NCBI RefSeq assembly: GCF_021054785.1
Contig: NZ_CP088239.1
Location: 1,980,001 to 2,012,000 of the forward strand
Direction: 5' to 3'
DNA from: Tannockella kyphosi
GTDB taxonomy: Bacteria > Bacillota_I > Bacilli_A > Erysipelotrichales > Coprobacillaceae
DNA: 32,000 nucleotides
Positions 6,672 through 30,257 of the stretch are shown piece after piece. A model generated the notes under the pieces. That model searched no databases and had not been told where the DNA came from. It saw only the letters and a program-made list of their open reading frames with translations. Made by a program: the position numbers and the translations under genes. The stretch's first letter is position 1; the number at the start of each line of letters is the position of its first letter.

Positions 6672-6672
6672 C

Positions 6673-7605: not shown

Positions 7606-7614
7606 CTTTTCTCC

Positions 7615-9933: not shown

Positions 9934-9935
9934 TG

Positions 9936-14514: not shown

Positions 14515-15537
14515 TTATCTAGTCATTTCACTAGTATCATTTGTATCTTGATGAGAAGCAATAATAGCTTCGATTTCATTTAATTCTAAAGCTTGCATAT
14601 CACCAGGAATTGTATTTTTTACAGCTCCTGTTGCATTCCCGAATTCTAATGCTTTTTGGCAATCTCCATCATATTTAATTAGTCCATAAAGAGCTCCAGA
14701 AATATAAGCATCTCCACTACCAATACGATCAACTACTTCAATATTAGCGTAATCATCTTCTTTGTAGTATGTATCTTTCAAAGCGTCATAGAATACAGAT
14801 CCAAAGGTATGTACTTTTGGACTATGTACGATTCTAGTAGTTGAGGCTACATAAGAGATAGGATATTCTTCTGTAAAGCTTTTCATAATTTGTTCTAAAG
14901 TACCTTCTTTTAAGAAAGTTAATTGTGCTGTACTTTCTGAACAGAAGAACATGTCTACATAAGGAAGAATTTCTTCAATGTATTGTTTTGCTTGTGGTCC
15001 TGTCCATAAGTTACTTCTAAAGTTAACATCAAAAGATATTTTAGCTCCAGCAGCTTTGAATTTTTTTATTAGTTCTTTTGTTAGGTCACGAACTTCTGGT
15101 GTTAGGGCTAATGTGATTCCTGTTGTATGGAACCATTTTGTAGAAGTGAACATTTCTTCTGGGAAATCTTCTAACTTCACTTTTAACATCGAAGAATGTT
15201 TACGATCATAGACAACTCTAGGTTTTCTAGGATATGCTCCATTTTCATAGTAATAAAGTCCTAATCTAGCATCTGATTCATTGTCATACGCTAAATATTC
15301 ATCACTTATTCCTACTCCACGCATTTTATTTCTTGAAAATATACCAATATCATTTCCTGGTACTTTAGAAATAATTCCTGTTTTTAAACCTAATAATGCT
15401 ATTCCACTTAGTACATTTAATTCTGCACCACCAACTTGTTTTTCTAAAAAATCACCACGAGTTAACTTTTCATTTGTAGGAGGAGAAAGTCTCATTAAGA
15501 CTTCTCCTAAAGATAATACATCATATTTCTTTTCCAT
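14515..15537 (-). CDS. kdgK: PfkB-family sugar kinase, 2-dehydro-3-deoxygluconokinase-like
   Basis: 340 aa with ribokinase-fold motifs (GGAELNV, DRIGSGDAYISG, GAVKNTIPGD). It is adjacent to eda. Confidence 0.8.
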   Translation of the reverse strand: MEKKYDVLSLGEVLMRLSPPTNEKLTRGDFLEKQVGGAELNVLSGIALLGLKTGIISKVPGNDIGIFSRNKMRGVGISDEYLAYDNESDARLGLYYYENGAYPRKPRVVYDRKHSSMLKVKLEDFPEEMFTSTKWFHTTGITLALTPEVRDLTKELIKKFKAAGAKISFDVNFRSNLWTGPQAKQYIEEILPYVDMFFCSESTAQLTFLKEGTLEQIMKSFTEEYPISYVASTTRIVHSPKVHTFGSVFYDALKDTYYKEDDYANIEVVDRIGSGDAYISGALYGLIKYDGDCQKALEFGNATGAVKNTIPGDMQALELNEIEAIIASHQDTNDTSEMTR

Positions 15538-15546
15538 GATATTCTC

Positions 15547-16506
15547 CTATTTTTGAATTAAATGAATTGCAAATCCTGCAACTTCATGTTTGAAATAAAT
15601 AGTAATTAGTTTGTCTCCATTATATAAAGCAGCATCCATATTAAACTCAAAACCTTGGTTTTCTAAATATGCTTTTGCACGATTTGCATCATTTGTAGCA
15701 ATCGCAATATGTCCTTTTGTTCCTAAATAAGGGCTTTTCATTGCTTCAATCGCACTACCTGCAAAATAAGAAGCTTTCTTTTCTGTTGCAGTAAATCCAA
15801 ACATTGCCTCAAACATTTTTACTGTTTGTTTTGCTTGATCATCATTTTCACAGTTAATCCCTACATGACGTAATTCAAAACCAAACATCGTCATTAAGGC
15901 TTCTTTTGTAAGTCTTGTGATTTCATCAAATTTACCAGCTTTTACTAAGTCTCCACTTACCATCCAGCTTCCACCACAACATAAGATTTTATTAAACGCT
16001 AAATATTCATTTACATTATTAGGATTGATTCCACCTGTCGGCATGAATTTCATATTTGTATAGGCTGCAGCCATTGATTTAATCATATTTAATCCTCCAG
16101 CAGCTTCTGCTGGGAAGAATTTTACAGTATCTAAACCTAATTCAATTGCTTGTTCTACTTGACTAGGACTAGTAACACCAGGTGTTACAGGGATTCCTTT
16201 TTCTACACAGTATTGAACCACTTTTGGGTTTAATCCTGGACTTACAATAAATTTTGCTCCTGCTGCCACTGCAATATCCACTTGTTCTACTGTTAAAATA
16301 GTACCTGCTCCAATTAACATGTCAGGATATTCTGTTGCCATAATACGAGTTGCTTCCACTGCTGCTTCTGTACGGAAAGTAATTTCTGCACAAGGTAACC
16401 CTCCATCGCATAATGCTTTTGCAAGAGGTGCTGCATCTTTTACATCATCTATTACGACTACTGGTACAATTCCGATTTGTTGTAATCTAGTTAACACTTC
16501 GTTCAT
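15547..16506 (-). CDS. eda: KDPG/KHG aldolase (Eda) fused to a C-terminal glyoxalase/VOC-like domain of about 105 aa
   Basis: Residues 1 to about 210 carry Eda motifs (CAEITFRT; the Schiff-base lysine context DTVKFFPAEAAGG; PTGGINP). Residues from about 212 to 319 (FELRHVGINCEND...GHIAIATNDANRAKAYLENQGFEF...FAIHLIQK) look like a single VOC module. Confidence 0.8.
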   Translation of the reverse strand: MNEVLTRLQQIGIVPVVVIDDVKDAAPLAKALCDGGLPCAEITFRTEAAVEATRIMATEYPDMLIGAGTILTVEQVDIAVAAGAKFIVSPGLNPKVVQYCVEKGIPVTPGVTSPSQVEQAIELGLDTVKFFPAEAAGGLNMIKSMAAAYTNMKFMPTGGINPNNVNEYLAFNKILCCGGSWMVSGDLVKAGKFDEITRLTKEALMTMFGFELRHVGINCENDDQAKQTVKMFEAMFGFTATEKKASYFAGSAIEAMKSPYLGTKGHIAIATNDANRAKAYLENQGFEFNMDAALYNGDKLITIYFKHEVAGFAIHLIQK

Positions 16507-16522
16507 TTGTCTTCTCCTTGAC

Positions 16523-16861
16523 CTATTTCTTTAAAAAGTCTTCTCTTTGTGGTGTGAAAATATCTAAAAGAACTGTGTCTTCTAAACATACACATCCATG
16601 TAATGATTCAATTGGCATAAATACAGAGTCTCCACCTTTAATAATTTGTTTCTCTCCATTTACTTCAAACTCTAAACATCCACTGATACAATAAGATACT
16701 TGTTCATGAATATGGTGATGTAAATCTCCAATAGCACCTTTTTGAAAATGTACTTCCACAATCATCATATCTCCACCACGAGCTACAATTTTTCTTTTAA
16801 TTAAGTCATTCACTTGTTCAAATTCAATTTCTTCATTAATAAAATAATAATCTCTGTTCAT
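16523..16861 (-). CDS. kdgF: Small single-domain cupin, KdgF-like (unsaturated uronate linearisation)
   Basis: 112 aa counted from the ATG at 16861, which has an AAGGAG RBS. Cupin motifs are GDLHHHIHEQVSYCISG and GDSVFMPIESLHG. The context is lyase, SDR, kdgK and eda. Confidence 0.65.
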   Translation of the reverse strand: MNRDYYFINEEIEFEQVNDLIKRKIVARGGDMMIVEVHFQKGAIGDLHHHIHEQVSYCISGCLEFEVNGEKQIIKGGDSVFMPIESLHGCVCLEDTVLLDIFTPQREDFLKK

Positions 16862-16871
16862 CTTATTCTCC

Positions 16872-18752
16872 TTATTTTTCAATTTCCCATACAGCATTAA
16901 ATGTAGCTGTTTTATTTTTTGTTCTTAAAATAATCGCTGTTCTAAATCTAGATACTGGATTATCATAAGTTTGTGCCATAAATACATCTTTATCTTTTGT
17001 ATCAATGATAGAAGTTAATGTTACTTTTCCTAATTTCCATTGTAATCTTAATTCATCACTACTTACTACTTTACGGACATCTTTTAAATGTTCATATCCA
17101 AATGCATCATATTCAATCTTTGCAGGAGTAGATGCTACTTCTGTTAATAATGTTGCTTCACTATGGAAAATCCAATCTAATTGATGTTCTTCTTTTGATT
17201 CTACTCCAAAACTATCTGTAAATCCATGATCACTAATTTCTACACGTCTTTGATAATCAACACCTTCATAAACATCTTCTACTAAAGAATGACAGATTGT
17301 ATCATTAAATTCAACAATTTTTCCACCTTCTGTAGAAACATGATTTTTCCCATCTACTAATACCGTATTATGAGATAATGAATGTCTATGCCATTCATTA
17401 CAAAGCTTTGATCCATAACCTGTATTTGATAAATCTCTTGATAATGATAATCCTTCTACCATTACTTCAATATTCATTTTATCAGGATGAGCATGAGAAG
17501 GTCCTCTATGACCATATTTCATAAAGACATTTATATGATCATTTTTAAGCATTCCAAAATATGAATTTTCAAAACAAGTAGAAGTTCTTTTGATTTCACT
17601 ACGATTGTTTATATCTAAATCTGGTAAACAAGACATACGTTCAAAACTAATTTCATTGTTATAATAGAAAGGTTTTGATAATGGGAACTCGACTCTTTCA
17701 CTTGGATTTGCACAAATATTTTTATAAATATTTCCTACTTCACTATCTTCTCCAAATACTTTAGTAGCTAAACAGTAAATATATTCATATGATTTTAATG
17801 TTACATTTGGCCATCCATCATTTGGATTTGGTAAGATATCGTTATCAAATGCATAATGATAAGCACGGATTAACATTTCTTCTACTAATCCTTTTGATGC
17901 GAATTCTTGTCCATGTAACTGAGCAAATGCCATTAAGTCTACTACACCTTCTAATAAGAAGAAGTTATAATGAATTGATCCTTCATACCAGAATTTATCT
18001 CCTGTAACACCTTGTTTTAATTGTTCATTAATACCAAATTCACCTTTGAATACTAAATCAATAAATGATTGATTTTGTGTATATAAACCAATAACACCTA
18101 CTGCTGCATTTAACCAACAAGGGATGTTATGAATATGTGTGATTTGAGGAATTAAGATATCAGTAATCGGAATAAATAAGTTTTTATTTAAACCTTCTAA
18201 GAATTCTTCTTCTAATTCACCTTTTAATAATTCTAAAGAAATAATAATACGAATAGCAACAATTGCTTCATTTAATCCTTGAGGCATTAAACGAGCTGCT
18301 CCACCAACATCAACTGTTAAACCACTTTCATCTACAATTTTATCTTTGGCATGTAATGCGAATTCTACATAATGATCAGAATAGAAACCTAAGATTTTTT
18401 TATATTCTGTTAAATATTTAGAATCTTTTTCAACACGATATAATGTCGCTAATTTCATTAATGTTAAAATTGCTGTATTACGGTAAAAATATCTCCATAC
18501 ATTATCAAATGTTTTATTTTGATATACTGTATGACATAATTGACAAACATGTTCATGTGGTTTATCTAAATCAAAGATCAGTCTTTCTCCATCTTCAGGA
18601 CAGAAATAATTATGTCCCCATTCACTTAAATATTCAGGTGAATCATGAAATTCATTACAAAACTTTTCTGCTTCTTTTTTCATTGATTCTAACATTTCCA
18701 TATATTTAGGATTCGTTGTTAGAATTTGTTCATTTATATCAAATATTTTCAT
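16872..18752 (-). CDS. Heparinase II/III-fold polysaccharide/oligo-uronate lyase A, cytoplasmic (no signal peptide)
   Basis: 626 aa. The C-terminal Hepar_II_III signature is GHRGPSHAHPDKMNIEV...HNTVLVDGKNH. The N-terminal half reads as helical, with WYEGSIHYNFF. There is an unusual FCPEDG...HEHVCQLCH cluster. The N-terminus MKIFDINEQIL is not hydrophobic. Confidence 0.7.
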   Translation of the reverse strand: MKIFDINEQILTTNPKYMEMLESMKKEAEKFCNEFHDSPEYLSEWGHNYFCPEDGERLIFDLDKPHEHVCQLCHTVYQNKTFDNVWRYFYRNTAILTLMKLATLYRVEKDSKYLTEYKKILGFYSDHYVEFALHAKDKIVDESGLTVDVGGAARLMPQGLNEAIVAIRIIISLELLKGELEEEFLEGLNKNLFIPITDILIPQITHIHNIPCWLNAAVGVIGLYTQNQSFIDLVFKGEFGINEQLKQGVTGDKFWYEGSIHYNFFLLEGVVDLMAFAQLHGQEFASKGLVEEMLIRAYHYAFDNDILPNPNDGWPNVTLKSYEYIYCLATKVFGEDSEVGNIYKNICANPSERVEFPLSKPFYYNNEISFERMSCLPDLDINNRSEIKRTSTCFENSYFGMLKNDHINVFMKYGHRGPSHAHPDKMNIEVMVEGLSLSRDLSNTGYGSKLCNEWHRHSLSHNTVLVDGKNHVSTEGGKIVEFNDTICHSLVEDVYEGVDYQRRVEISDHGFTDSFGVESKEEHQLDWIFHSEATLLTEVASTPAKIEYDAFGYEHLKDVRKVVSSDELRLQWKLGKVTLTSIIDTKDKDVFMAQTYDNPVSRFRTAIILRTKNKTATFNAVWEIEK

Positions 18753-18761
18753 TTATTGCTC

Positions 18762-20159
18762 CTATTCGAACACTACTTGTTCTTCTTTTATTTCTATACT
18801 TTTATTTTTCTCTATTCTACCATCAATGATTGTCTTTTTCATGAACAAATACAAACCAATTGAAAATAGTCCACTTAATATATTACTTACCAACATTGCA
18901 TACCAAATACCATATTCACCAATCCCCCAAATAGGTTGAGAGAAAATAATAACAACTGGTACTCTAAACACATAAATTCTCATTAAACTAACAAATAAAT
19001 TAAACTTTGTATCCCCTGTTCCTTGGAAAATACCCATTGCACATTCTGTCATTCCCCAGGGAATAATAGATGCACTATAGATACCCATTGCATTAATAAT
19101 ATGTTGATACGTTGGATCACTAGTATCCACAAATAATGCTGCAATCGATGATCTAAATGGCAGTAAGAATGCTATAAAAATAATAGCTAACGTTAATCCA
19201 AAACCTAAGGATTTCCATACTGCTTTTTTAACACGTTCTGGTTGGTTTGCACCCATGTTTTGAGCTACAATTACCGATAAACCTGTACCAAATGCGGTTA
19301 CAGCTTTAAAGAAAACAGAGTTTACTTTGTTTGTGATTCCATAAGCTGCTAAAACTGGTTCTCCAAAAGCAAGTACATACTTGTTAATAATTATAAAACC
19401 CATTGATATTAATGATTTTTCAAATATTAATGGTAATGCTGTTACTAATAATATTTTAGTTGAAATAGAGTTTATTTTGTATTCACTTATTTCTAATTTT
19501 CTTTCATTTTTCTTAGAGAAAAAACTAATTAAACAAGTAGTAGCACAAATTCCTTGTGCTAATATTGTTGCTAGTCCAATCCCTGTAATTTCCCAATTTA
19601 CTACAATCGTAAATAGGTAACAGAAAATGATTTTCATTATTAAAGAAAACATATTAATAGATATTGCTTTCTTTGTATTTCCTTGAGCTCTTTCAATTGC
19701 GAGATAAAGAACAGTAATAAAATTAAATACTACACCCCATGCTGTTAACATCAAATAACGACTTGAATCAGCTAATAAAGTATCTGTAATACCTGCTAAA
19801 AGTAATACTTCATTTGAAAAAACAAATGTTACGGCACTTATTATAAACCCAATCGTTACTCCAATGACAAATACATGGCCAATCATTCTACGTGCTTTTT
19901 GTTCATCATTAGCACCAATATAACGTGCTATTAAACTACACCCAGCTACCGATAGACCTGTTGCTACTGCATTTAATGTATCCTGAATAGGTCCTACAAA
20001 GGCAACACTTGCTACTGCTAAACTACCTACATTCGCAACAAAAAGACTATCTATAATACCATACATACCCTCTACCATATTGGTAATGATAATTGGTAAA
20101 GTTATCATCCAGATAACTGCGTCTAGTCTACCATTTAATATATTTACTTTCTCTTTCAA
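18762..20159 (-). CDS. MATE-family efflux transporter
   Basis: 465 aa with about 12 TM segments and a typical MATE N-terminus (ITLPIIITNMVEGMYGIIDSLFV). It starts at a TTG, preceded by AGGAGAGGGG. Confidence 0.85.
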   Translation of the reverse strand: MKEKVNILNGRLDAVIWMITLPIIITNMVEGMYGIIDSLFVANVGSLAVASVAFVGPIQDTLNAVATGLSVAGCSLIARYIGANDEQKARRMIGHVFVIGVTIGFIISAVTFVFSNEVLLLAGITDTLLADSSRYLMLTAWGVVFNFITVLYLAIERAQGNTKKAISINMFSLIMKIIFCYLFTIVVNWEITGIGLATILAQGICATTCLISFFSKKNERKLEISEYKINSISTKILLVTALPLIFEKSLISMGFIIINKYVLAFGEPVLAAYGITNKVNSVFFKAVTAFGTGLSVIVAQNMGANQPERVKKAVWKSLGFGLTLAIIFIAFLLPFRSSIAALFVDTSDPTYQHIINAMGIYSASIIPWGMTECAMGIFQGTGDTKFNLFVSLMRIYVFRVPVVIIFSQPIWGIGEYGIWYAMLVSNILSGLFSIGLYLFMKKTIIDGRIEKNKSIEIKEEQVVFE

Positions 20160-20209
20160 GATTTTCCCCTCTCCTAAACAATTTTTTATAAATCGCTCAC
20201 TTTAAATAG

Positions 20210-20246
20210 TATAGTAGGTAAGCGAGGAATTCATTTACCTACTATA
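20210..20246. promoter_or_regulatory. 12-bp perfect inverted repeat (tatagtaggtaa-N13-ttacctactata) in the SDR-MATE intergenic region
   Basis: Read directly from the sequence. It lies about 50 nt upstream of the MATE start and is not followed by a U-tract on either strand. Confidence 0.4.
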
Positions 20247-20272
20247 TGTGTAAAATTACTAATTCATTTATT

Positions 20273-20344
20273 AAAAAAACTGGAAATTTATTTTCTTTTC
20301 GTTTTCCTTGCGGAATTCACAAATGAAAACTTCCTTTCCAGTTT
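20273..20344 (-). terminator. Long irregular hairpin plus U7 downstream of the SDR gene (probable terminator or attenuator)
   Basis: On the minus strand, AAACTGGAAA...TTTCCAGTTT forms a 10-bp outer stem and GTTTTC/GAAAAC an inner stem, followed by TTTTTTT. Confidence 0.5.
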
Positions 20345-20356
20345 GTTTAAATCTTC

Positions 20357-21109
20357 TTATAAGAAGTCTTGTCCACCATTAACTTGGATAATTTCTCCTG
20401 TTAAGAAAGAAGCTTTTTCACTACATAAGAATGAAATTACTGATGCTACTTCTTCAGGTTGACCAAAACGTTTCATTAAGATATTGTTTTTCCAAGATTC
20501 AAATACTTGAGGATTTGTTTTCTTAATGTTGTCATGGAATGGAGTATCGATAGTTCCTGGGCTTACTGCGTTAGAACGGATACCGTATTCTGCTAAATCT
20601 TTTGCAAATGCTCTTGTTAAAGTAACGATTGCTGCTTTACTTACACCATAGATACCAGCTCCTGGACCACCTGCATTCCATGCAGCATTTGATGCAAAGT
20701 TAACGATTGAAGCATTTTCACTTTTCTTTAAGAAAGGAATTGCTGCTCTTGTTACGAAGAATGCGCTATCTACATTTAATGCCATTACATTACGGTAGAA
20801 ATCAGTAGTCATTTCTTCAAAACGAGAACGTCCTCCAAGTCCACCAGCGTTGTTTACAACAACGTCGATAACTCCGTATTTTTCACCAATTGCAGCTACA
20901 CTTGATGCTACTGCAGCTTCGTTTGTTACGTCAAAGTTAACGTACTCACATTCTGCTCCTACTTCTTTTAATGATGCAATTGCAGTTGCTGCTTGTGCGT
21001 CATCAATTCCGTTAATTACTACTGTATAACCATCTTTTGCTAATGCTGTTGCAGTTGCTAAACCAATACCACCTGTTGCTCCTGTAACTAATGCTACTTT
21101 TTTACTCAT
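20357..21109 (-). CDS. SDR-family oxidoreductase, DEH-reductase/KduD-like (4-deoxy-L-erythro-5-hexoseulose uronate to KDG)
   Basis: 250 aa with TGATGGIG, NNAGGLGGRSRFEEM, GGPGAGIYGVSKAA and SPGTIDTPFH. These motifs resemble what I recall of the Sphingomonas A1-R DEH reductase; I have not verified this. The gene is co-operonic with a lyase. Confidence 0.65.
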   Translation of the reverse strand: MSKKVALVTGATGGIGLATATALAKDGYTVVINGIDDAQAATAIASLKEVGAECEYVNFDVTNEAAVASSVAAIGEKYGVIDVVVNNAGGLGGRSRFEEMTTDFYRNVMALNVDSAFFVTRAAIPFLKKSENASIVNFASNAAWNAGGPGAGIYGVSKAAIVTLTRAFAKDLAEYGIRSNAVSPGTIDTPFHDNIKKTNPQVFESWKNNILMKRFGQPEEVASVISFLCSEKASFLTGEIIQVNGGQDFL

Positions 21110-21129
21110 TTTAATTTCTCCTTTTATTT

Positions 21130-23121
21130 TTAAATTTCAAATGTTGTTTCTGTTTGACCATCATGTATGATTACATACATACTGGCGTTACTTGTGATAC
21201 CATATTGTTCAAATCCTTCTCTAGCAATACATTCATATTGCTTTTTAGCATGGATTGTTACTTTATGGTGATCTTGTACTACTTTTATATTTGCAGGAAC
21301 AAAGCATTCAAACATAACTGCTTTTTTGCAGGCTTGCTTTGTTTCAAAATATAACGATTTAATTTCTACTCTACATACTTTGTCAGGCTCTTGTGTTGTC
21401 ATTACTCCGACAACATCTTGATCGTATTGTTTTTCTGTTATTTCTACATCACTATGGATAACATACCCTAATTGCTTATTGTTTAATGCATAAGTATAAG
21501 CATTTTCAAAGTTCTTTGTTGCATGATTGTTTGTATTTGAGATAACTGAGAACTTATGGTCCTCTTCACTTACAAAACGGTCTAAGAATACCATGAATTC
21601 TAAATCATCACTAAAGACTGTTCTACTAACTTCTGTCATTTTTGCAGCTTCTTTATAGATTTTAGTTGTATCTCCATAGTACCCAACCATATCATCTTGA
21701 TGAACATAATTCATTACATCACCACGATATTCATTAACAATATCAAAGTCAGGGTTTTGTGCTAATCTAGCTTTTGCTGAATCAACATAAACATCATTAC
21801 AATCAAATACATCTGTGTATTGACCATCTACTAATAACACATTGTGATTGTCAGGCATAATATTTCTATTATAACCATCTTCACATGTTAAGAATTCACT
21901 TCCTTCAACATAGATATAAGCTAAGTTATCAGGATGATGATGTGATAATGATAAACAATCAATATTTTCTTTATAATACAATTCCCAAGCTTTATCCCAT
22001 TGTTTTTTACCACCAGGAGCGCTACATTTAATTGTAAATACTTTTCCATCACGATCCCAAGTATTACGCATACTTAGTAATCCTAAATCTGGGAAATATT
22101 TTACTTTTGGTAACTCTGCTAAAGGTTTTGCTTCTACTTTTGGGCTAAACCATAAGAATTCAAATACTGCTTCTGGTAAAATACCAGGCTTCACTTTACT
22201 ATTATTTGCTTCTATTTCTAAGAATTCATCTAAAACAATATTCGCAAATGTTTGTGCATACCCGTTATTGTACTCTGCAGCCACTTTATAATAAACACAA
22301 GCTGTATGTCCACTATGGCGATCATGTGCATCTCCATAGTTTAATTGCTGTGCTAGATCTGGTGCTGATTGATATAAACGATAATCGAATGTATTTCTTA
22401 AATACTCACTTGTTTCGAAGTAATTAATACCTTCTTGTACATTTAATAAGTGAGCATATACAAATAACCACATTCCACCATAACGCCAATAAACAACACC
22501 TTCATAATTAGAACCATCTTCTGGCATATATTCATATACTCTTTTAAAGTTTTCTTTGGCACTATCAATATATACTTGTCCATTTAAGCCATCTGCTTGT
22601 AATACATAACCAGCAGTAGCTAATCCATTTAAGTTGATCCAGTTATGGTTTTGATAGTATTGTGTTGCCCATCCTTCACCAGCTGTTTCTTCTTTGTAGT
22701 CATACATGATTTTTGCATGATGTTCTATTTTATTTGTGATTGTTTCTCTTAGTTCTTGATCTAAGTCTGCTTTTAACCAATCATAACCAAGTGATAATCC
22801 AAATAAAATCCAAGAAGCACTTAAATCTACATTTACTAAATGAGCGAATCCCCATTTTTCATAATTCAATACAGTATTAATAAATCTTTTTGCTTCCTTT
22901 AAATATTTATCTTCTTTTGTTAAGTTATACGCTAATGCTAAGTTTACAATTGCAATCCCCATATAAGTAGTACTTCCATCTGGATGTACTTCTGGTAATT
23001 CAAAAGTCGCATAACGATTTGCTTCTTCTAGAAGACGATTTAATTGTTCTTTCCTTTCATTGTGGGCTTGAGCCTTAAATGGCTCTAAGTCCCCAATGAA
23101 CACATAATTTGTTTTTTGCAT
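21130..23121 (-). CDS. Heparinase II/III-fold polysaccharide/oligo-uronate lyase B, cytoplasmic (no signal peptide)
   Basis: 663 aa. The alpha/alpha-toroid-type N-terminal half carries YYQNHNW and YEGVVYWRYG. The C-terminal signature is SLSHHHPDNLAYIYVEG...NHNVLLVDGQ. The N-terminus MQKTNYVFIGD is not a leader peptide. Confidence 0.7.
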   Translation of the reverse strand: MQKTNYVFIGDLEPFKAQAHNERKEQLNRLLEEANRYATFELPEVHPDGSTTYMGIAIVNLALAYNLTKEDKYLKEAKRFINTVLNYEKWGFAHLVNVDLSASWILFGLSLGYDWLKADLDQELRETITNKIEHHAKIMYDYKEETAGEGWATQYYQNHNWINLNGLATAGYVLQADGLNGQVYIDSAKENFKRVYEYMPEDGSNYEGVVYWRYGGMWLFVYAHLLNVQEGINYFETSEYLRNTFDYRLYQSAPDLAQQLNYGDAHDRHSGHTACVYYKVAAEYNNGYAQTFANIVLDEFLEIEANNSKVKPGILPEAVFEFLWFSPKVEAKPLAELPKVKYFPDLGLLSMRNTWDRDGKVFTIKCSAPGGKKQWDKAWELYYKENIDCLSLSHHHPDNLAYIYVEGSEFLTCEDGYNRNIMPDNHNVLLVDGQYTDVFDCNDVYVDSAKARLAQNPDFDIVNEYRGDVMNYVHQDDMVGYYGDTTKIYKEAAKMTEVSRTVFSDDLEFMVFLDRFVSEEDHKFSVISNTNNHATKNFENAYTYALNNKQLGYVIHSDVEITEKQYDQDVVGVMTTQEPDKVCRVEIKSLYFETKQACKKAVMFECFVPANIKVVQDHHKVTIHAKKQYECIAREGFEQYGITSNASMYVIIHDGQTETTFEI

Positions 23122-23139
23122 TTATAATTCCTCGTTTTT

Positions 23140-24891
23140 TTACGCTATTTTTGTCTTTTTCGCTGTCCAATATAATCCGATACCTGCTAATAATACGACT
23201 GCTCCTACTGCTACAAATACAAATCTACTTGCAAATTCATTTGGTATAAATACCATGAATGATATTGCTAATCCTGCTGCTATTAATAATCCACCTAATG
23301 TTTTTCTTTGTCTACAATCAGATTCAACTACTTTAGGATCCTCTTCATTTACAATTACTGGTGTTGCAATATTTGTAAAGAATAAGTCAACTTCTTTTTG
23401 TCTTTCTGGAGTAAACCCTTTAAAGAATAACATCGTGATAAAGAAGAATGGTGTTGTAATACATCCATGTAATACAATAGGTATCGTAAGAGAAGCCATA
23501 TCACTATATTCTGCTGCTGTTAGTGAAATACCCATAAATGCACTTACCATATCAATATTACAAATAAATGCGATAAAGTATGATACTGCCATACCTACTA
23601 CTAATGTTGCCCATCCAGCCCAGTCTGGTGTTTTCTTAACAAAGAATCCTAATACTGTTGGAATCATCATTGGCATTGCCAATAAAGAACCAACCATTAC
23701 TGTTGCATTAAATAAGCTTGTATTTTCTAAACTATTAATAAATATTCCTACTGCAATAATGATTGCACCAAATAATAACGTCATTGCTTTTCCAAGTTTT
23801 AACATTGATTCATCAGATGCATCTTTATTAATAAATACTTTATAAACACTACGTACAAAGATAGCTGAATTTTTATTCAAAGCTGAATCCATTGATGACA
23901 TCGTTGCTGCAAACATAGCCGACATCATTAACCCAACCATTCCTACTGGCATAAAGTCACGAACAAATACATAATATGTTGCATCCGTAATACTACTTCC
24001 TAATGCATCTAATCCCCATGCTGCTGTATCAGGACTAAATGCTGCCATAAACCAAGAAGGAACAAACCATAACAATGGTCCTACTGTCATTAATGCACAA
24101 GCTAATAAAGCAGCCTTTCTAGCATTTTTAGTATCTTTAGCACAAATATAACGATAAGATCCAATCATGTTATTAGTAGAAATAAATTGTTTTACAAAAG
24201 AACATAAAACCCATGCCCAAAATAACCACATATAATTATAATCAGAACCTGTTACTATTTTTTCTGGTAATCCTTGTGCAAAAATAACACTAAGTCCACC
24301 AGCTTTTACTACTGCTACAACAGTTGCTACAACTGATACCGCCATAATGATAACCATTTGTAAGAAGTCAGAAGCTACTACAGCCCAAGCTCCTCCACTA
24401 ACAGACATTAAAACTACGATTAATCCTGTAATTACTATTGTTATATTCATTTCTACATTGAATACTGCTGCTGCAAATATCGCTAACCCATTTAACCAAA
24501 TACCTGCTTGAATGATATTAATAGGTAGTGAAGCTAACGTAAAAGCTTGCTCATTTACTTTACCAAATCTCATTCTAACTCCATCAATTGGAGTTGTTAC
24601 ACGCATCTGTCTTGATTTTGCTGCAAAGAATAAATAGTTTCCAAAATAACCAACTGCATTACCAAAGAAAATAGCTGTTACTGCAAAACCATCTGTAAAA
24701 CCTTTTCCGGCTGCACCTGTAAAAGTCCAAGCACTAAACTGAGTCATAAAGGCTGTGGCACCTACCATCCACCACAACATTTTTCCTCCACCTTTAAAAT
24801 AATCACTTGTTGAATTAGAGAAAGTTCTAAAAATCCAACCTATCGCCATTAAAAATACGAAATACACACATACAACTAGAATATCTATCAT
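23140..24891 (-). CDS. Sodium:solute symporter (SSS) family transporter, paralog B
   Basis: 583 aa with about 13-14 TM segments and an SSS-type N-terminus (SDYFKGGGKMLWWMVGATAFMTQFSAWTFTGAAGK). Confidence 0.8.
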   Translation of the reverse strand: MIDILVVCVYFVFLMAIGWIFRTFSNSTSDYFKGGGKMLWWMVGATAFMTQFSAWTFTGAAGKGFTDGFAVTAIFFGNAVGYFGNYLFFAAKSRQMRVTTPIDGVRMRFGKVNEQAFTLASLPINIIQAGIWLNGLAIFAAAVFNVEMNITIVITGLIVVLMSVSGGAWAVVASDFLQMVIIMAVSVVATVVAVVKAGGLSVIFAQGLPEKIVTGSDYNYMWLFWAWVLCSFVKQFISTNNMIGSYRYICAKDTKNARKAALLACALMTVGPLLWFVPSWFMAAFSPDTAAWGLDALGSSITDATYYVFVRDFMPVGMVGLMMSAMFAATMSSMDSALNKNSAIFVRSVYKVFINKDASDESMLKLGKAMTLLFGAIIIAVGIFINSLENTSLFNATVMVGSLLAMPMMIPTVLGFFVKKTPDWAGWATLVVGMAVSYFIAFICNIDMVSAFMGISLTAAEYSDMASLTIPIVLHGCITTPFFFITMLFFKGFTPERQKEVDLFFTNIATPVIVNEEDPKVVESDCRQRKTLGGLLIAAGLAISFMVFIPNEFASRFVFVAVGAVVLLAGIGLYWTAKKTKIA

Positions 24892-24918
24892 GATATTTCC
24901 TCCCTATATTTTCTTATT

Positions 24919-24941
24919 CGTTCACATATAAGAACTTGGTT
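24919..24941 (-). promoter_or_regulatory. Composite operator O2 of symporter B (GTTC-N8-GAAC-N4-GTTT)
   Basis: The plus strand reads gttcacatataagaacttggttt. It ends 27 nt upstream of the start codon. Confidence 0.55.
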
Positions 24942-24996
24942 TTGTTGTTGGTACAAAAAATAATTGCTGTTTGTCGTTGTATTGATAATACGCTAG

Positions 24997-25063
24997 GTTT
25001 ATATATATAAACTAAGTTTATTAATTACACATAGAGTATATTCAATCTTGTTTTGTTTGTCAA
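24997..25063 (-). promoter_or_regulatory. Symporter B promoter (TTGACA-17-TATACT, 25035-25063) plus operator O1 (24997-25019)
   Basis: The minus strand reads cTTGACAaacaaaacaagattgaaTATACTctatgtgtaattaatAAACTTAGTTTATATATATAAAC. Confidence 0.55.
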
Positions 25064-25129
25064 TGAGTTTCCAATTATTTCATGTACAATTCATTGATTT
25101 CATCGTGCTTTTTACTTCATTTTTATTTA

Positions 25130-25158
25130 ACATATTAGGAGCTATGCTCCCAATATGT
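25130..25158 (-). other. 13-bp stem hairpin just after the symporter A stop codon (weak terminator or mRNA-processing/stability element)
   Basis: The stem is acatattaggagc-tat-gctcccaatatgt. The single mismatch becomes a G-U pair only in the minus-strand RNA. On the minus strand the hairpin is followed by UUAAAUAAAAA rather than a U-run. Confidence 0.45.
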
Positions 25159-25169
25159 TTTTTTATTTT

Positions 25170-26924
25170 TTAAACATGTTTTTTAGAGTTTTTAGCAGAA
25201 ATAATTAATCCCATTCCAGCTACGAATACTACTACTCCTACTGCTACAAATACAAATCTACTTGCAAACTCATTTGGTATAAAGAACATACACGTTATAG
25301 CAACCCCTGCTGTAGCTAATAATCCGCCTAATGTTTTTCTTTGTCTACAATCAGATTCAATTACTTCTGGATCTTCTTCATCTACAACTACTGGCGTATT
25401 TGTATTTTCGAAGAATAAATCAACTTCTTTTTGACGTTCTGGAGAATATCCTTTAAAGAATAATTGACTTAATAAGAAGAATGGTGTTGTAATACATCCA
25501 TGTAATACTACTCCTAAAGTAAGAGAAGACATATCACTATACTCTGCTGCAGTTAAAGGTATACCAATTACTGCACTTACCATATCTGCATTACATACAA
25601 ATGCAATAAAGTAAGATACTGCCATACCTACTACTAATGTTCCCCATCCAGCCCAATCAGGTGTTTTCTTAATAAAGAATCCTAATAAAGATGGAATTAA
25701 CATTGGTAAAGCTAATAAAGAACCAACCATTGTTGTAACATTAAATAAACTAGTATTTTCTAAACTATTAATAAATATCCCTACTGCAATAATAGTAATA
25801 CCAAATAATAAAGTCATTACTTTTCCTAATTTCAACATATGTTCATCTGATGCATTTTCATTAATAAATACTTTATATACATTACGTACAATAATACCAG
25901 CATTTTTATTTAATGCTGAATCCATTGATGACATAGTTGCCGCAAACATAGCCGACATCATTAACCCAACCATTCCGACTGGCATAAAGTCACGAACAAA
26001 TACATAATATGTTGCATCTGTAATACTACTTCCTAATGCTTCTAATCCCCATGTTGCTGTATCAGGATTAAATGCTGCTACAAACCAAGCTGGTACAAAC
26101 CATAACAAAGGTCCTACAAACATTAAAGTACATGCTAGTAATGCTGCTTTTTTTGCATTTTTTGTATCTTTTGCACACATATAACGATAAGAATCAATCA
26201 TATTGTTTGTTGATAAGAATTGTTTTACAAAAGAACATAATACCCATGCCCAGAATAACCACATATAGTTATAATCTGATCCTGTTACAATTCCTGCTGG
26301 TAAACCTTCTGCAAAAATAACACTAATTCCACCTGCTTTAATAACTGCAACTACTGTTGCTACTACTGATACTGCCATAATGATAACCATCTGTAAGAAG
26401 TCAGAAGCTACTACCGCCCAAGCTCCACCTGTTACTGACATTAATACTACAATTGCACCAGTGATAACGATTGTTATATTCATTTCTACATTGAATACTG
26501 CTGCTGCAAACACTGCTAAACCATTTAGCCAAATACCAGCTTGAATAATACTAATTGGTAATGACGCTAATGTGAAAGCTTGTTCATTTACTTTACCATA
26601 ACGTAAACGAATTCCTTCAATTGGAGTAACCACTCGAAGTTGTCTTGACTTCGCTGCAAAGAATAAATAATTTCCTAAATAACCTACTGCATTTCCAAAG
26701 AAAATTGCTAATACAGCAAATCCATCTGTAAATGCTTTTCCTGCTGCACCTGTAAAAGTCCAAGCACTAAATTGTGTCATAAACGCTGTAGCACCTACCA
26801 TCCACCACAACATCTTTCCACCACCTTTGAAATAGTCACTAGTTGAACTTGAGAAAGTTCGAAAAATCCAACCAATTGCCATTAAAAAGACAAAATAAAC
26901 GCATACTACTAGAATATCAATCAC
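25170..26924 (-). CDS. Sodium:solute symporter (SSS) family transporter, paralog A
   Basis: About 85 percent aa identity to paralog B by eye. I placed the start at the GTG at 26924 (VIDILVVCVYF, aligning with MIDILVVCVYF of paralog B), which has an AGGAGG 7 nt upstream. The 18-codon ORF-track extension to 26978 is not conserved. Confidence 0.8.
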   Translation of the reverse strand: MIDILVVCVYFVFLMAIGWIFRTFSSSTSDYFKGGGKMLWWMVGATAFMTQFSAWTFTGAAGKAFTDGFAVLAIFFGNAVGYLGNYLFFAAKSRQLRVVTPIEGIRLRYGKVNEQAFTLASLPISIIQAGIWLNGLAVFAAAVFNVEMNITIVITGAIVVLMSVTGGAWAVVASDFLQMVIIMAVSVVATVVAVIKAGGISVIFAEGLPAGIVTGSDYNYMWLFWAWVLCSFVKQFLSTNNMIDSYRYMCAKDTKNAKKAALLACTLMFVGPLLWFVPAWFVAAFNPDTATWGLEALGSSITDATYYVFVRDFMPVGMVGLMMSAMFAATMSSMDSALNKNAGIIVRNVYKVFINENASDEHMLKLGKVMTLLFGITIIAVGIFINSLENTSLFNVTTMVGSLLALPMLIPSLLGFFIKKTPDWAGWGTLVVGMAVSYFIAFVCNADMVSAVIGIPLTAAEYSDMSSLTLGVVLHGCITTPFFLLSQLFFKGYSPERQKEVDLFFENTNTPVVVDEEDPEVIESDCRQRKTLGGLLATAGVAITCMFFIPNEFASRFVFVAVGVVVFVAGMGLIISAKNSKKHV

Positions 26925-26986
26925 GATAATTCCTCCTAAATTTTCTTTTCTACCATTGAAATCAAAAGACATTCTCATTGTCTATA

Positions 26987-27009
26987 ATTCATATATATGA
27001 ACTAAGTTT
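26987..27009 (-). promoter_or_regulatory. Composite operator O2 of symporter A
   Basis: The plus strand reads attcatatatatgaactaagttt. It lies 63 nt upstream of the GTG start. Confidence 0.55.
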
Positions 27010-27139
27010 TACAATGTCTACAAAAAATAAATTATTGAATGAATACTTACTGCCATAAGTATTCTATTGAATAATCTTTTGATCCCGTTTCTTAAACTTT
27101 ATACACCGGTATGTATCAGTTAAACGTTGATGATAAATT

Positions 27140-27206
27140 GTTCACATATACGAACCTGGTTTATCATTTACAACTAAAGTATAGTATGTCCTTTTTCTTT
27201 TGTCAA
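27140..27206 (-). promoter_or_regulatory. Symporter A promoter (TTGACA-17-TATACT, 27178-27206) plus operator O1 (27140-27162)
   Basis: The minus strand reads aTTGACAaaagaaaaaggacatacTATACTttagttgtaaatgatAAACCAGGTTCGTATATGTGAAC. Confidence 0.55.
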
Positions 27207-27372
27207 TGAGTTATAGTTACTTTTGTGCACTTTTTCTCAAGGGATTTTTTTATAACCGTTTTCAATATCCTATTTTTCTTTATATTATATGTATTTTTTG
27301 ACTTTTTTATGAACCTTTATTTTTTAAATTTTTTTTCATTCATTTATACAATATATCGTATTTTCCTATACA

Positions 27373-27428
27373 AAAATGTAAGGACTTACATTTTAGATAA
27401 AATAAAAACTAGAAGTGTTCTAGTTTTT
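27373..27428. terminator. Two tandem hairpins downstream of the IclR gene (terminators)
   Basis: The first is aaaaactagaa-gtg-ttctagttttt (27404-27428), which overlaps the iclR stop and is followed by a U-rich tail on the minus strand. The second is aaaatgtaag-ga-cttacatttt (27373-27394). Confidence 0.7.
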
Positions 27429-28176
27429 ATCCTCTGTACCCTAATGATTTCGATACATTATTCGCTATTAATTGTAATTCATTTGCCATTGCTTCATTGT
27501 CCATTTTCTCGTTATATACATCAGAAAGTGAAAGCGCCACGACTACTTTTCCAGTATAGTCAAATACTGGTACACCACAACAACTAGAAATACTACGATC
27601 TTCTTGCATCTCTATTGCATACCCTCTTTGTCTAGTAATATCTAATTCTTTGATCAATTTTTCTTTATCATTAATCGTATGTTCTGTTAAATGTTTAAAT
27701 TCAATTTTATCAAGGATAACTTGTCTTTCTTTTTCTGGTAAAAACGCTAAAATAGCTTTTCCACTAGCAGTTGCATAGACATCTTTTCTAGCACCTAACG
27801 CACATGTTGCAAGCACTGCTTTAGGGGCAACATATTTACCCATGAAAACTAAATCTGTTCCATCTAAAATACTTACAAATGCTGTTTTATCATATTTATC
27901 AGCAATTGGTTTTAAACCTGCAAGACACTGATCTACGACATCTAACCCATTATAATATTTCATACCTAATGAAAAAGCTTTTACACCTAAACAGTATTTC
28001 TTTTCATTATAAGGCATTGTTCTTACGTAATTTAATTCATGCAATGACTGCACTATTACAAAGACACTACTTTTAGGATATCCGAATTCATTGACGATAT
28101 CTTGTAATGTTACTCCTTCTTTTTTTTCACTAATATATTCTAGTATTTGCATGCTTCTAAATATTGTATTATTCAT
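27427..28176 (-). CDS. IclR-family transcriptional regulator (KdgR-like by context)
   Basis: 249 aa with an N-terminal wHTH (FRSMQILEYISEKKEGVTLQDIVNEFGYPKSSVFVIVQSLHELNYV) and a C-terminal IclR effector domain. Confidence 0.85.
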   Translation of the reverse strand: MNNTIFRSMQILEYISEKKEGVTLQDIVNEFGYPKSSVFVIVQSLHELNYVRTMPYNEKKYCLGVKAFSLGMKYYNGLDVVDQCLAGLKPIADKYDKTAFVSILDGTDLVFMGKYVAPKAVLATCALGARKDVYATASGKAILAFLPEKERQVILDKIEFKHLTEHTINDKEKLIKELDITRQRGYAIEMQEDRSISSCCGVPVFDYTGKVVVALSLSDVYNEKMDNEAMANELQLIANNVSKSLGYRG

Positions 28177-28190
28177 CTTAACCTCCCAAT

Positions 28191-28251
28191 AAACTTAGTT
28201 CATAAATAAGAACTCCTATGTTATTGTATGTCTTTAAGGGCGGAAAGTCAA
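28191..28251 (-). promoter_or_regulatory. iclR promoter (TTGACT-17-TACAAT, 28223-28251) with one composite operator downstream of the -10 (28191-28213)
   Basis: The plus strand at 28191 reads aaacttagttcataaataagaac. It is the same 23-bp motif as at the symporter genes, but inverted relative to the direction of transcription. Confidence 0.55.
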
Positions 28252-28320
28252 TCACTAACAACTAATTTTTTAATAAATACAACCGCTTTCAATATTCTTC
28301 TTTTATTTATCTTTTTAGAC

Positions 28321-28361
28321 AAAAAAAAGGATAGAGAAATTATGTTTCTTTGTCCTTTTTT
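28321..28361. terminator. Terminator downstream of the second FabT-like gene
   Basis: The sequence A8-ggatagagaaa-ttatg-tttctttgtcc-T6 forms a 13-position stem with 11 pairs, flanked by A and T runs. Confidence 0.65.
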
Positions 28362-28365
28362 ATTA

Positions 28366-28833
28366 TTATGATTTGTTTTTTTCTTTAAATCCTTTAAAGA
28401 ATACAGTTAGATTCCTTAAGGAATCAATAAGATGTTTATCTTCTAGAGAAGATGTATCACTACATATACTATCAATCATTTCTTGATGGAATTTAGTATG
28501 AATTGCAATTGCTTTTTTACCTTTTTCAGTGAGAATAACACGCATAATACGACGATCTCTTTCATCTTTTATTCTTTGAACACATTTTTTTTCTTCTAAT
28601 TTTTTAATTGCTGTTGTAACAGTTCCATTTGTTAGAGTTGCTTTTTTAGCTAATGAAGACATTGTTGGATTTTCAATACTTTCTATTGTTTCTAACATAT
28701 GTATTTCTGTTACAGTTAAATTCTTTACTCCGTGTTCTTGTAAATAATCTTCTTCTATATCTAATATTTCATTAAATAATGTTACTAGTAACTCATTTAT
28801 GATTTGTCTTTGATTTTCATCATGATTTGACAT
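28366..28833 (-). CDS. MarR-family regulator, FabT-like paralog (copy 2)
   Basis: 155 aa, roughly 60 percent identical by eye to the fab-operon FabT. The wHTH segment PTMSSLAKKATLTNGTVTTAIKKLEEKKCV matches copy 1 at 28 of 30 residues. A promoter candidate TTTACT-17-TATAAT lies upstream. Confidence 0.8.
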   Translation of the reverse strand: MSNHDENQRQIINELLVTLFNEILDIEEDYLQEHGVKNLTVTEIHMLETIESIENPTMSSLAKKATLTNGTVTTAIKKLEEKKCVQRIKDERDRRIMRVILTEKGKKAIAIHTKFHQEMIDSICSDTSSLEDKHLIDSLRNLTVFFKGFKEKNKS

Positions 28834-28936: not shown

Positions 28937-28960
28937 AAAAAAAATAGCCTTTCGACTATT
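28937..28960 (-). terminator. Terminator overlapping the permease stop codon
   Basis: The minus strand reads AATAGTCgaaaGGCTATTTTTTTTT, a 7-bp stem (one G-U pair), a GAAA loop and a U8 tail. Confidence 0.6.
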
Positions 28961-30236
28961 CTTCTTCTATATCATCTCTAAATAATAAGTTTAATACAAC
29001 TCCTACAATTGCTGATAAAGCTGTACCTGATAAAGTAGCACTTCCTGCAATAGGGAATACTGCTCCTCCTAAACCAACTACTAACATTGCCGAAGCAATA
29101 ATTAAGTTTCTTGATTTTGAGAAATCAATTTTGTTATCAACTAAGATTCTTAAACCATTACTTGCAATAACACCATATAATAAAATACTCATCCCACCTA
29201 ATACACAAGTTGGAATTGAATTAATAATAACTGTTACATAATCTAAACATGATAATAAGATTGCGATACAGGCAGCTCCACAAGTTACATAAACAGAACC
29301 TATTTTTGTCATACCAATAACACCTGTATTTTCACCATAAGTAGTATTTGCAGGTCCTCCTAAGAATGCAGAGAATGCCGTTGCTACACCATCACCAATT
29401 AAAGTTTTATCAATACCTGGATCTTTTAAGAAGTTTTTACCACAGATTTTACCTAATACAGTATGATCTCCAATATGTTCAGAAATAGTTACAATTGCTA
29501 CTGGTAAAATAGCTAATGTTTCTGGTCCAAAATAGAATTCATATTGTCTGAATCCTTCCACATAGAATGGGAAAGCAAAATCAGGAATTGCAAAGAAACT
29601 AGCTGTAGCTAATCCACTTAAATCAACTAAACCTAATACCCATGCTACTAAATATCCTACAACAATAGCTGCTAAAAAAGGAATAATTTTTAAGAATCCT
29701 TTTGCATAAACAGATACACCTGCAGCTACTAAGAAAGTAATAATTGCTACTACCATTTGAGGTACTGTCCCATCACTTGTAAATCCAGCATTTGATACAG
29801 CAGAACTTGCTAAACTTAATCCAATAACTGCAATCATAGGACCAATTACAATAGGAGGTAATAATTTATCCACCCATGCTGTTCCAACAAACTTAATAAT
29901 AATGGCTACAATAATATAAATTAACCCTACTAACATTAATCCTGTTTGAGCAGCTGAAATATTTCCACCCATCGCTTCTACTGCTAAAACAACTGCAGTA
30001 ATATAAGCAAATGATGATCCTAAATAAACAGGAACTTTTCCTTTTGTACAAATAGTATAAATGATTGTTCCACATCCAGAAGCAAATAATGCTACTGATA
30101 CTGGAAAACCAGTTAAGATAGGTACTAATACAGTTGCTCCAAACATTGCAAATACATGTTGGAAACTTAATAATAACCATAATCCTGCTTTTGGTTTTTC
30201 ATTTACATCAACGATTAAATTCTTTTTTTCTTCCAT
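28956..30236 (-). CDS. Uracil/xanthine permease (NCS2 family)
   Basis: About 426 aa with 12-14 TM segments and NCS2 patterns (FQHVFAMFGATVLVP, GENTGVIGMTK). I prefer the ATG at 30236 for its RBS spacing (AGGAGA plus 7 nt). The ORF-track start is 30242. Confidence 0.85.
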   Translation of the reverse strand: MEEKKNLIVDVNEKPKAGLWLLLSFQHVFAMFGATVLVPILTGFPVSVALFASGCGTIIYTICTKGKVPVYLGSSFAYITAVVLAVEAMGGNISAAQTGLMLVGLIYIIVAIIIKFVGTAWVDKLLPPIVIGPMIAVIGLSLASSAVSNAGFTSDGTVPQMVVAIITFLVAAGVSVYAKGFLKIIPFLAAIVVGYLVAWVLGLVDLSGLATASFFAIPDFAFPFYVEGFRQYEFYFGPETLAILPVAIVTISEHIGDHTVLGKICGKNFLKDPGIDKTLIGDGVATAFSAFLGGPANTTYGENTGVIGMTKIGSVYVTCGAACIAILLSCLDYVTVIINSIPTCVLGGMSILLYGVIASNGLRILVDNKIDFSKSRNLIIASAMLVVGLGGAVFPIAGSATLSGTALSAIVGVVLNLLFRDDIEEE

Positions 30237-30257
30237 CTTCATCTCTCCTTTATTCTT

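Follow-up and report, generated by a model that had tools for sequence, protein, structure and literature searches.

A three-box motif beside an iclR-family gene of Tannockella kyphosi: predicted operators of a probable alginate-oligomer regulon

The genome of Tannockella kyphosi holds, on contig NZ_CP088239.1, five copies of a 23-bp repeat that lie at a gene for an IclR-family regulator and at two genes for SSS-family symporters. They stand in a stretch of 32,000 nucleotides (positions 1,980,001 to 2,012,000, forward strand), the whole of which was analysed and is called the window here; coordinates are those of the window unless another locus is named. Which protein reads these repeats, and what does it control? 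It is very probable that the five sites are the operators of the adjacent IclR regulator, which would act as a local repressor that regulates its own gene and blocks the two symporter promoters. The genes concerned form a probable alginate-oligomer regulon of Gram-positive gut anaerobes, and the regulator with its sites represents a new orthologous group within the already described class of three-box IclR operators, and thus a known kind of switch.

Five sites at three promoters

All five 23-mers are present in the sequence and share the layout GTTC-N8-GAAC-N3-GTTT (4+8+4+3+4 = 23). Each putative operator can be written RAAY-N3-RTTY-N8-RAAY, a 16-bp AT-rich palindrome with one extra box 3 nt beyond it. 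The first-pass annotation of this DNA had recognised the palindromic core, which is seen in all five sites and in the orthologues, but it had placed four nucleotides between GAAC and GTTT where the 23-bp strings count three. Its start positions were right at 24997, 26987, 27140 and 28191, and the first site starts at 24920, not 24919. Exact matches to GTTC-N8-GAAC number three in the 32 kb, all of them in the three promoter regions, and the centre of the core, ATATATAT, has an information content of 0.7-1.7 bits per position.

Every gene of the iclR/symporter region is on the minus strand, and each symporter gene is preceded by a promoter and two sites, O1 and O2, making up unit A and unit B. 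The three best sigma-70-like matches within 20000-28600 are the promoters of symporter A, unit B and iclR, the same three that had been named at the outset. The best is that of symporter A (TTGACA-17-TATACT, 27178..27206, minus strand, 11/12 positions); the unit B promoter, with the same elements, lies at 25035..25063 (minus strand, 11/12 positions), and the iclR promoter, TTGACT-17-TACAAT, ranks third (28223..28251, minus strand). O1 does lie downstream of TTGACA-17-TATACT, as annotated, starting 15 nt past the -10 element in both units. In unit A it occupies 27140..27162 of the minus strand (AAAC-CAG-GTTC-GTATATGT-GAAC), with the third box promoter-proximal, and in unit B 24997..25019 of the same strand (AAAC-TTA-GTTT-ATATATAT-AAAC). 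O2 is found on the minus strand at 26987..27009 in unit A (AAAC-TTA-GTTC-ATATATAT-GAAT) and at 24920..24942 in unit B (AAAC-CAA-GTTC-TTATATGT-GAAC). Its description as near the ribosome-binding site (RBS) suits unit B, where it ends 15 nt upstream of GGGAGG, but not unit A, where it ends 49 nt upstream of the AGGAGG that precedes GTG 26924. The centre-to-centre distance from O1 to O2 is 153 bp in unit A, as first given, and 77 bp in unit B, one less than the 78 bp first given.

The iclR gene has a single site, a predicted autoregulatory three-box operator at 28191..28213, which reads AAAC-TTA-GTTC-ATAAATAA-GAAC on the plus strand. In the direction of iclR transcription this is GTTC-N8-GAAC-N3-GTTT, so that its third box is gene-proximal. 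The site lies just past the gene's own -10 element, where it had been placed from the start: it begins 9 nt beyond that element, and its end lies 3 nt short of a GGGAGG RBS.

An independent test of these sites came from a position weight matrix (PWM) of 26 columns whose training set consisted of 54 unique sites from other genomes only, with 200 Markov-simulated windows as the null model. This matrix picks exactly the five window sites: they are its top five matches, with O1 of unit B first (26.4 bits), followed by the iclR site (24.9), O1 of unit A (24.7), O2 of unit A (21.6) and O2 of unit B (18.3). In the simulated windows the maximum score averaged 9.4 (standard deviation 3.1) and reached 22.3 once, and scores of at least 15 bits occurred at 0.06 per window. 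The next independent match in the window, 8.5 bits at 20315-20340, is within the null range. A degenerate form of the 23-mer has 6 matches where 0.06 are expected, a figure that is circular because the pattern was derived from those same sites. A further half-site that had been suggested at 27309-27322 dissolves into a lone ATGAAC, a hexamer that occurs 29 times in the window against an expectation of 21 +/- 5, a number that chance would give.

Unit A and unit B, each complete with promoter, O1, O2 and symporter, form a tandem duplication (23140-27215). The two symporters are 85% identical in protein sequence and the promoters and O1 sites align, while the relatives L001 and L002 have a single symporter. 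Unit A has about 76 extra bp between O1 and O2 compared with unit B, and its stretch that aligns with O2 of unit B is degenerate. The likeness of the two symporters, the alignment of their promoters and O1 sites, and the 32% GC content of the window could be taken to mean that the repeats are mere leftovers of the duplication, or chance AT-rich palindromes, with no regulatory role. We give this almost no weight. The iclR site lies outside the duplicated unit; the upstream regions have diverged away from the promoters and operators (68% mean column identity, with a large indel); the null model produces sites of at least 15 bits far too rarely, at the rate given above; and the same motif recurs at orthologous positions in genomes spanning 30-66% GC, a conservation across genomes that effectively refutes the idea.

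Conservation beside iclR orthologues and the probable binding protein

The relatives of the regulator form a small family of 34 proteins with more than 44% identity, and a one-genome-per-species scan gave about 35 orthologous loci. The same three-box motif, at the same positions, stands beside the iclR orthologues of about 30 other genomes (Lacrimispora, Hungatella, Oscillospiraceae and metagenome-assembled genomes (MAGs) from fish guts), and the orthologues at these loci are 44-80% identical to the window IclR. It is from this comparison that the proposal draws its support, namely that the sites serve the adjacent IclR protein as operators for iclR and the symporters. The orthologous loci contain 80 sites of at least 16 bits in 594 kb, all of them no more than about 1.2 kb from iclR, a count that is partly circular for loci used in training, whereas the placement of the sites is not; around non-orthologous IclR genes we found 2 sites in 748 kb, both at one Chloroflexota locus. 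The motif is visible in the raw sequence upstream of iclR orthologues, as in the Lacrimispora example ATGAATyTrATTCGTATATATAAAC, and it is retained in genomes of 62-66% GC (GTTCACGATTAGGAAC, GTTCATAATCAAGAAC). With a spacer of four nucleotides the pattern gave background only (18 matches at orthologous loci, 16 at other loci), and the signal appeared with a spacer of three.

The layout is shared as well as the motif. One site lies immediately past the iclR -10 element in every iclR promoter, and several of these autoregulatory sites abut the -10; a TTGACA-type -35 element and a -10 element are conserved upstream of the iclR orthologues. O1 is found 12-16 nt past a near-consensus TTGACA/TATAAT promoter of the neighbouring operon, and O2 64-296 bp beyond O1, often across the Shine-Dalgarno (SD) sequence or the start codon. 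Where the operon and iclR are divergent, the intergenic region between them holds the sites. The iclR gene of L001 and L002, two fish-gut MAGs, is followed by an SSS symporter, a DUF4962 lyase and an SDR reductase, the same order as in unit B, whereas the DUF4962 lyase of Lacrimispora, Hungatella and Clostridium is preceded by an ABC transporter with two BPD_transp_1 permeases and a MalK-type ATPase. The transporter type thus varies yet the DUF4962 lyase stays, and therefore the sites follow the regulator and its pathway rather than any one gene.

The same comparison bears on whether another transcription factor, for example one of the GntR or LacI type, CcpA or a FabT-like MarR protein, binds the sites while iclR merely happens to lie next to them. 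A candidate is at hand in the MarR-family gene directly upstream of iclR (28366-28833; best match FabT, at 119 bits against a cut-off of 200). Such a binder is nevertheless very improbable, for the motif tracks iclR orthologues in about 30 genomes with differing neighbours (the upstream gene at locus L003 encodes a methyltransferase), a site is present in every iclR promoter, as expected of autoregulation, and the sequence of the boxes and both of their spacings fit published IclR-family motif types.

More improbable still is a reading in which the palindromes act as RNA leader hairpins that influence termination, stability or translation. O1 and O2 do lie downstream of the predicted start sites and would be transcribed, and in Lachnospiraceae O2 takes in the SD sequence and the start codon. 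The hairpins predicted for the sites are, however, marginal (-1.3 to -3.3 kcal/mol), and the outer arms are perfectly complementary in only 21 of the 54 unique orthologous sites, so that the half-sites drift independently, without covariation. The conserved third box has no pairing partner, the autoregulatory sites that abut the -10 are partly upstream of the transcript, and Rfam gave no match in favour of an RNA-level function. Operators for the adjacent IclR protein therefore remain the preferred interpretation of the five sites.

Several observations weigh against that interpretation. In T. kyphosi the motif scan covered the 32 kb of the window, which limits what can be said of the size of the regulon and of specificity across the genome. 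Given the tandem duplication of units A and B, the four symporter sites amount to only two independent observations within the genome. The motif is absent near the 44-52% identical orthologues of Sphaerochaetaceae, Anaeroplasmataceae and Cloacimonadota, and kdgK, eda and kdgF, the hallmark targets of regulators of the KdgR type, have no site in the window.

Other loci show how the motif can be placed. At locus L068 (Candidatus Flexifilum affinis, Chloroflexota) two high-scoring three-box copies (8034-8059 and 10306-10331 of that locus: GATGAACAGTGTTCATATATATGAAC) flank a gene for an IclR protein with only 30% identity to that of the window; therefore the motif extends beyond the orthologous group. 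In O2 of L003 (11033-11058 of that locus) and the equivalent O2 of Lachnospiraceae, the SD sequence lies within the N3 spacer (GAAC-GAG-G / GAAC-GGA-G), and the last box, ATGAAC, is made up of the start codon and an Asn codon of the operon's first gene, a 192-aa open reading frame (ORF) without a Pfam match.

The third box, its polarity and the proposed mode of regulation

The conserved GTTT beyond the core had been taken for a third half-site. For a non-circular test, sites were chosen by the 16-bp core alone, leaving the flanks unconstrained, and a box counted as 5' when RAAY stood 3 nt outside the core on the side that faces the direction in which iclR is transcribed. Of the 56 unique sites that precede the operon downstream of iclR, 49 had the box on the 5' flank only, none on the 3' flank only and 1 on both; for 26 unique autoregulatory sites the corresponding numbers were 19, 2 and 1. 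Chance would supply a box at about 3% per flank. At the five sites that face divergent operons, the box is 5' when read in the direction of those operons. The arrangement RAAY-N3-RTTY is present in 5/5 window sites and in about 85% of the core-selected orthologous sites, and in many lineages the third box extends to tATGAAC. On the evidence of these sequences, the extra GTTT is a genuine third box. A fourth box, which would give a symmetric 30-bp site, was considered and rejected: its would-be position carries about 0.1 bit of information, and no more than 2 unique sites have boxes on both flanks.

The iclR site of the window was correctly described as having the opposite orientation to the others, and it shares this gene-proximal third box with its counterpart in L080, the closest relative (338-363 of that locus; 80% protein identity). 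In relatives at 71% identity or beyond, the third box of the iclR site is not flipped, and the flip of the autoregulatory site is a lineage-specific inversion of operator polarity. This flip and the strict promoter-proximal polarity of the third box are the only features of the system that we regard as mildly unusual.

The regulator itself, with 249 aa, has both domains that define the IclR family, an N-terminal helix-turn-helix (HTH) domain (PF09339, E = 2e-11) and the C-terminal IclR effector-binding domain (PF01614, E = 7e-35). Its best solved homologue is TM0065/KdgR of T. maritima (PDB 1MKM, E = 3e-30), and 2IA2, 2G7U and TtgV are further homologues in the PDB; it falls below every NCBIfam equivalog cut-off, scoring 120 bits against the 275 set for KdgR (NF011671).

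IclR operators have been sorted into motif groups by Suvorova & Gelfand (2021, PMC8222616). Group 1 has the form GKTYCRYW3-4RYGRAMC, with a subgroup iv of NGTYCRAW4TYGRACN, and group 2 the form TGRAACAN1-2TGTTYCA; in 32 orthologous groups three boxes of alternating direction occur, with one pair for each motif group (PMC8222616). The core described here, GTTCATATATATGAAC (GTTC-N8-GAAC), fits subgroup iv (NGT-12-ACN, GTYCRAW4TYGRAC), and GAAC-N3-GTTC fits the group-2 pattern TGRAACA-N1-2-TGTTYCA, the boxes alternating in direction; therefore the architecture is of an already known kind. As in that class, the sites adjoin the regulator gene and were predicted by phylogenetic footprinting. They differ from it in that the third box is AAAC or TGAAC, one base shorter than TGRAAC, and neither a fixed promoter-proximal orientation of the third box nor an autoregulatory flip is discussed in PMC8222616. 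In the available part of its supplements, neither the strings TATATATGAAC and TATATATAAAC nor any of the host names searched for were found that would mark the present orthologous group.

That paper proposes alternative dimerisation and states that experimental validation is still needed (PMC8222616). It is possible, although we hold it doubtful, that the third box works directionally, always facing the promoter at transporter operators in about 20 lineages and with a flipped autoregulatory box in the Tannockella lineage only, and that this is the first IclR-type alginate-oligomer regulon to be defined in Gram-positive gut anaerobes. If this were true, operator polarity would be read by an asymmetric IclR oligomer that either engages three HTH domains or has two alternative dimer interfaces, and the system would offer a natural test bed for the alternative dimerisation hypothesis of PMC8222616.

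A palindrome with one external half-site is also found with PcaU, PobR and HmgR of Acinetobacter and Pseudomonas, which are IclR-family proteins too. Their extra repeat lies about 10 bp away, whereas the third box here is 3 nt away. Their boxes are GC-richer (GTNCG-N5-6-CGNAC) and serve aromatic catabolism, in contrast to the AT-rich boxes of the present sites; and PcaU and PobR are activators, whereas the positions found here indicate repression. The extra repeat of these systems is called an external direct half-site repeat (PMC8222616), and PcaU cannot bind unless the third repeat is present (Popp et al. 2002, as cited in PMC8222616).

In function the nearest comparison is with KdgR (Dickeya, E. 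coli; Thermotoga TM0065; Caldicellulosiruptor), likewise an IclR-family local regulator, of uronate-polysaccharide catabolism into 2-keto-3-deoxygluconate (KDG), with operators in promoters or 5' untranslated regions (UTRs), which implies repression. In C. bescii the sites of the IclR-type KdgR lie in 5' UTRs or over promoter elements, and together with mapped transcription starts they led to its designation as a repressor (PMC8579813). The regulator of the window is, however, only about 29-33% identical to proteins named as KDG-regulon repressors, and the motif of KdgR in gammaproteobacteria is a group-2 palindrome of two boxes, RWWGAAACGNCGTTTCAKKA (GAAA-N-TTTC-type) (PMC8222616). As far as sequence can tell, the regulator would act like a KdgR-type local repressor but stands outside the KdgR orthologous group.

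By the logic used for C. bescii KdgR, repression is the probable sign of regulation here because all of the sites lie at or downstream of the -10 elements of strong promoters. An activator or dual-role regulator, or a DNA loop between O1 and O2 held by one tetramer, is by comparison unlikely, although less so than the other rivals considered above. The IclR family does include activators, for example PobR and PcaU (PMC8222616), the presence of two sites per promoter is conserved, and there is a weak phasing signal between O1 and O2 at a period of 11 bp. The placement of every site at or downstream of the -10 counts against activation, the more so beside near-consensus promoters that should need none. 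As for looping, which had been suggested for the two symporter units, the O1-O2 spacing varies from 64 to 296 bp and is unphased at 10.0 or 10.5 bp (Rayleigh p = 0.73 and 0.30), while the value of 0.01 at 11.0 bp is uncorrected and comes from lineages that are not independent. Helical phasing thus lends the suggestion no support, nor does it refute it. Nor is the spacing that is typical of tandem IclR sites, 18-22 bp between centres (PMC8222616), seen here: no site of the window or of the orthologues has a second palindrome at 18-22 bp from it.

A simple scheme of local repression would accommodate these data. Without inducer, the regulator would be bound to its sites as an oligomer, most likely a tetramer that engages three of its four HTH domains. 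Bound directly past its own -10 element it would exert negative autoregulation; bound at O1 it would cover roughly +8 to +30 of each symporter promoter, and at O2 it would sit further along each 5' leader, the result being a block of promoter escape or elongation. The genes held in check, those for two SSS symporters, a PL15-like exolyase and an SDR that is a candidate reductase of 4-deoxy-L-erythro-5-hexoseulose uronate (DEH), would import uronate oligosaccharides and begin their degradation; alginate oligomers are the most likely of these. The repressor would presumably be released by an intermediate of the pathway, either an unsaturated uronate/DEH or KDG.

The genes under predicted control, their probable substrate and their host

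The iclR gene (27427..28176, minus strand; Pfam HTH_IclR and IclR_C) is followed by the gene for symporter A (25170..26924, minus strand; Pfam SSF). The longest ORF of symporter A begins at ATG 26978, which has no RBS; GTG 26924 is the likelier start because it is preceded by a strong RBS, AGGAGG, and aligns with the start of symporter B (MIDILVV). The ATG, if used, would put O2 of unit A just upstream of the coding sequence. The unit B operon (20357..24891, minus strand) comprises symporter B (23140-24891), the DUF4962/PL15-like lyase B (21130-23121) and the SDR reductase (20357-21109), all on the minus strand and assigned by Pfam, with additional PDB sequence matches for the lyase. We predict that the unit A promoter drives symporter A alone and that the unit B promoter drives symporter B, lyase B and the SDR. 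An inverted repeat with a 14-bp stem at 25129-25171 (AACATATTAGGAGC-TAT-GCTCCCAATATGTT), which follows the stop codon of symporter A and precedes promoter B, has its T-run on the plus-strand side and its A-run on the gene-strand side; it is possibly a weak or bidirectional terminator that separates the two units.

Beyond the SDR lies a distal group of genes for a MATE protein, the PL17-like lyase A, a KdgF cupin, Eda and KdgK (14515..20159, minus strand; Pfam and PDB matches). The gap between the SDR and MATE genes (20160-20356, 197 bp, minus strand) folds as RNA with a minimum free energy of -46.5 kcal/mol (z = -4.63) and has no match in Rfam. Directly after the SDR gene it contains a terminator-like long hairpin that ends in a U7 run (20272..20350, minus strand) and that, from its modelled fold, probably ends the operator-controlled unit B transcript; its loop exceeds the length that a simple terminator scan allows, which is why such a scan missed it. 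Immediately ahead of the MATE RBS, at 20210-20246, is a second hairpin, whose stem measures 12 bp. The first-pass annotation saw no intact operator copy before the MATE-kdgK group, and this view holds, since the best PWM match there is the one of 8.5 bits already placed within the null range, and it falls within the terminator-like hairpin. Its suggestion that this half of the pathway may be controlled differently likewise stands, as the group is preceded neither by an operator nor by a promoter match of at least 9/12 positions.

The Eda ORF (15547-16506) encodes 319 aa, of which residues 7-199 only are KDPG-aldolase domain; the C-terminal portion of about 120 aa matches no Pfam family and may be an additional, fused domain. 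Elsewhere in the window, AccC, the biotin carboxylase subunit of acetyl-CoA carboxylase, 100% identical to the AccC protein recorded for T. kyphosi, is encoded at 10802-12163, among ORFs (2707-12578) that we take, as an assumption, to be fatty-acid-synthesis genes, and a uracil-permease-like gene is present at 28956-30242.

What do the controlled genes act upon? Judged by the encoded proteins, alginate oligomers are the most likely substrate. Lyase A matches PL17 alginate lyases, and lyase B matches the PL15 oligoalginate lyase Atu3025 (3A0O), as well as a PL35 chondroitinase and dermatan-sulfate epimerase. ToaABC-type SSS transporters import alginate oligomers in the alginate utilization loci (AULs) of Vibrio, alongside kdgF, dehR, kdgK and eda, and IclR genes have been noted in some of these loci (PMC13390454). 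The window resembles the Vibrio alginate loci in its SSS symporter, PL15/PL17-type lyases, DEH-reductase-like SDR, kdgF, kdgK and eda; it differs from known alginate loci in its host, a Gram-positive Erysipelotrichales gut anaerobe. It differs too from Zobellia, where the regulator of alginate use, AusR, is, in the accessible text of PMC7641319, a GntR-family repressor. Literature searches, as far as the text of the sources was available, turned up no IclR operator for alginate loci and AusR as the sole alginate regulator.

The assignment of substrate has its own difficulties. Neither lyase resembles alginate enzymes more than weakly (E = 1e-9 to 1e-12), and the matches include chondroitin- and heparin-active folds; and at locus L083, whose IclR is 67% identical to that of the window, a sulfatase gene (4547-5836 of that locus) is divergent from iclR. 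The weak enzyme matches and the relative's sulfatase together mean that the alginate assignment is not settled, and the sulfatase hints that some members of the regulon may handle sulfated uronate polymers, instead of or besides alginate. The SDR has no specific NCBIfam assignment, and no KduI-type isomerase was detected among the window proteins scanned with Pfam.

The habitat of the organism fits alginate as the substrate. T. kyphosi, a member of the Coprobacillaceae (Erysipelotrichales), was obtained from the hindgut of Kyphosus sydneyanus, which eats mainly brown seaweeds, according to the accessible portions of PMC11333855 and PMC9306998, and the closest relatives of its IclR protein, which bear 'FM_' isolate names or stem from a single block of SRA runs, may derive from the same habitat.

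Our findings leave the general understanding of IclR regulators unchanged, while enlarging the class of three-box IclR operators by a well-populated orthologous group whose box polarity is strict. With the motif, the regulon can be sought in Lacrimispora, Hungatella, Oscillospiraceae and related gut bacteria. For T. kyphosi itself, our findings provide a regulatory model of how a Gram-positive symbiont of a seaweed-eating fish would switch on the uptake and first-step breakdown of uronate, probably alginate, oligosaccharides.

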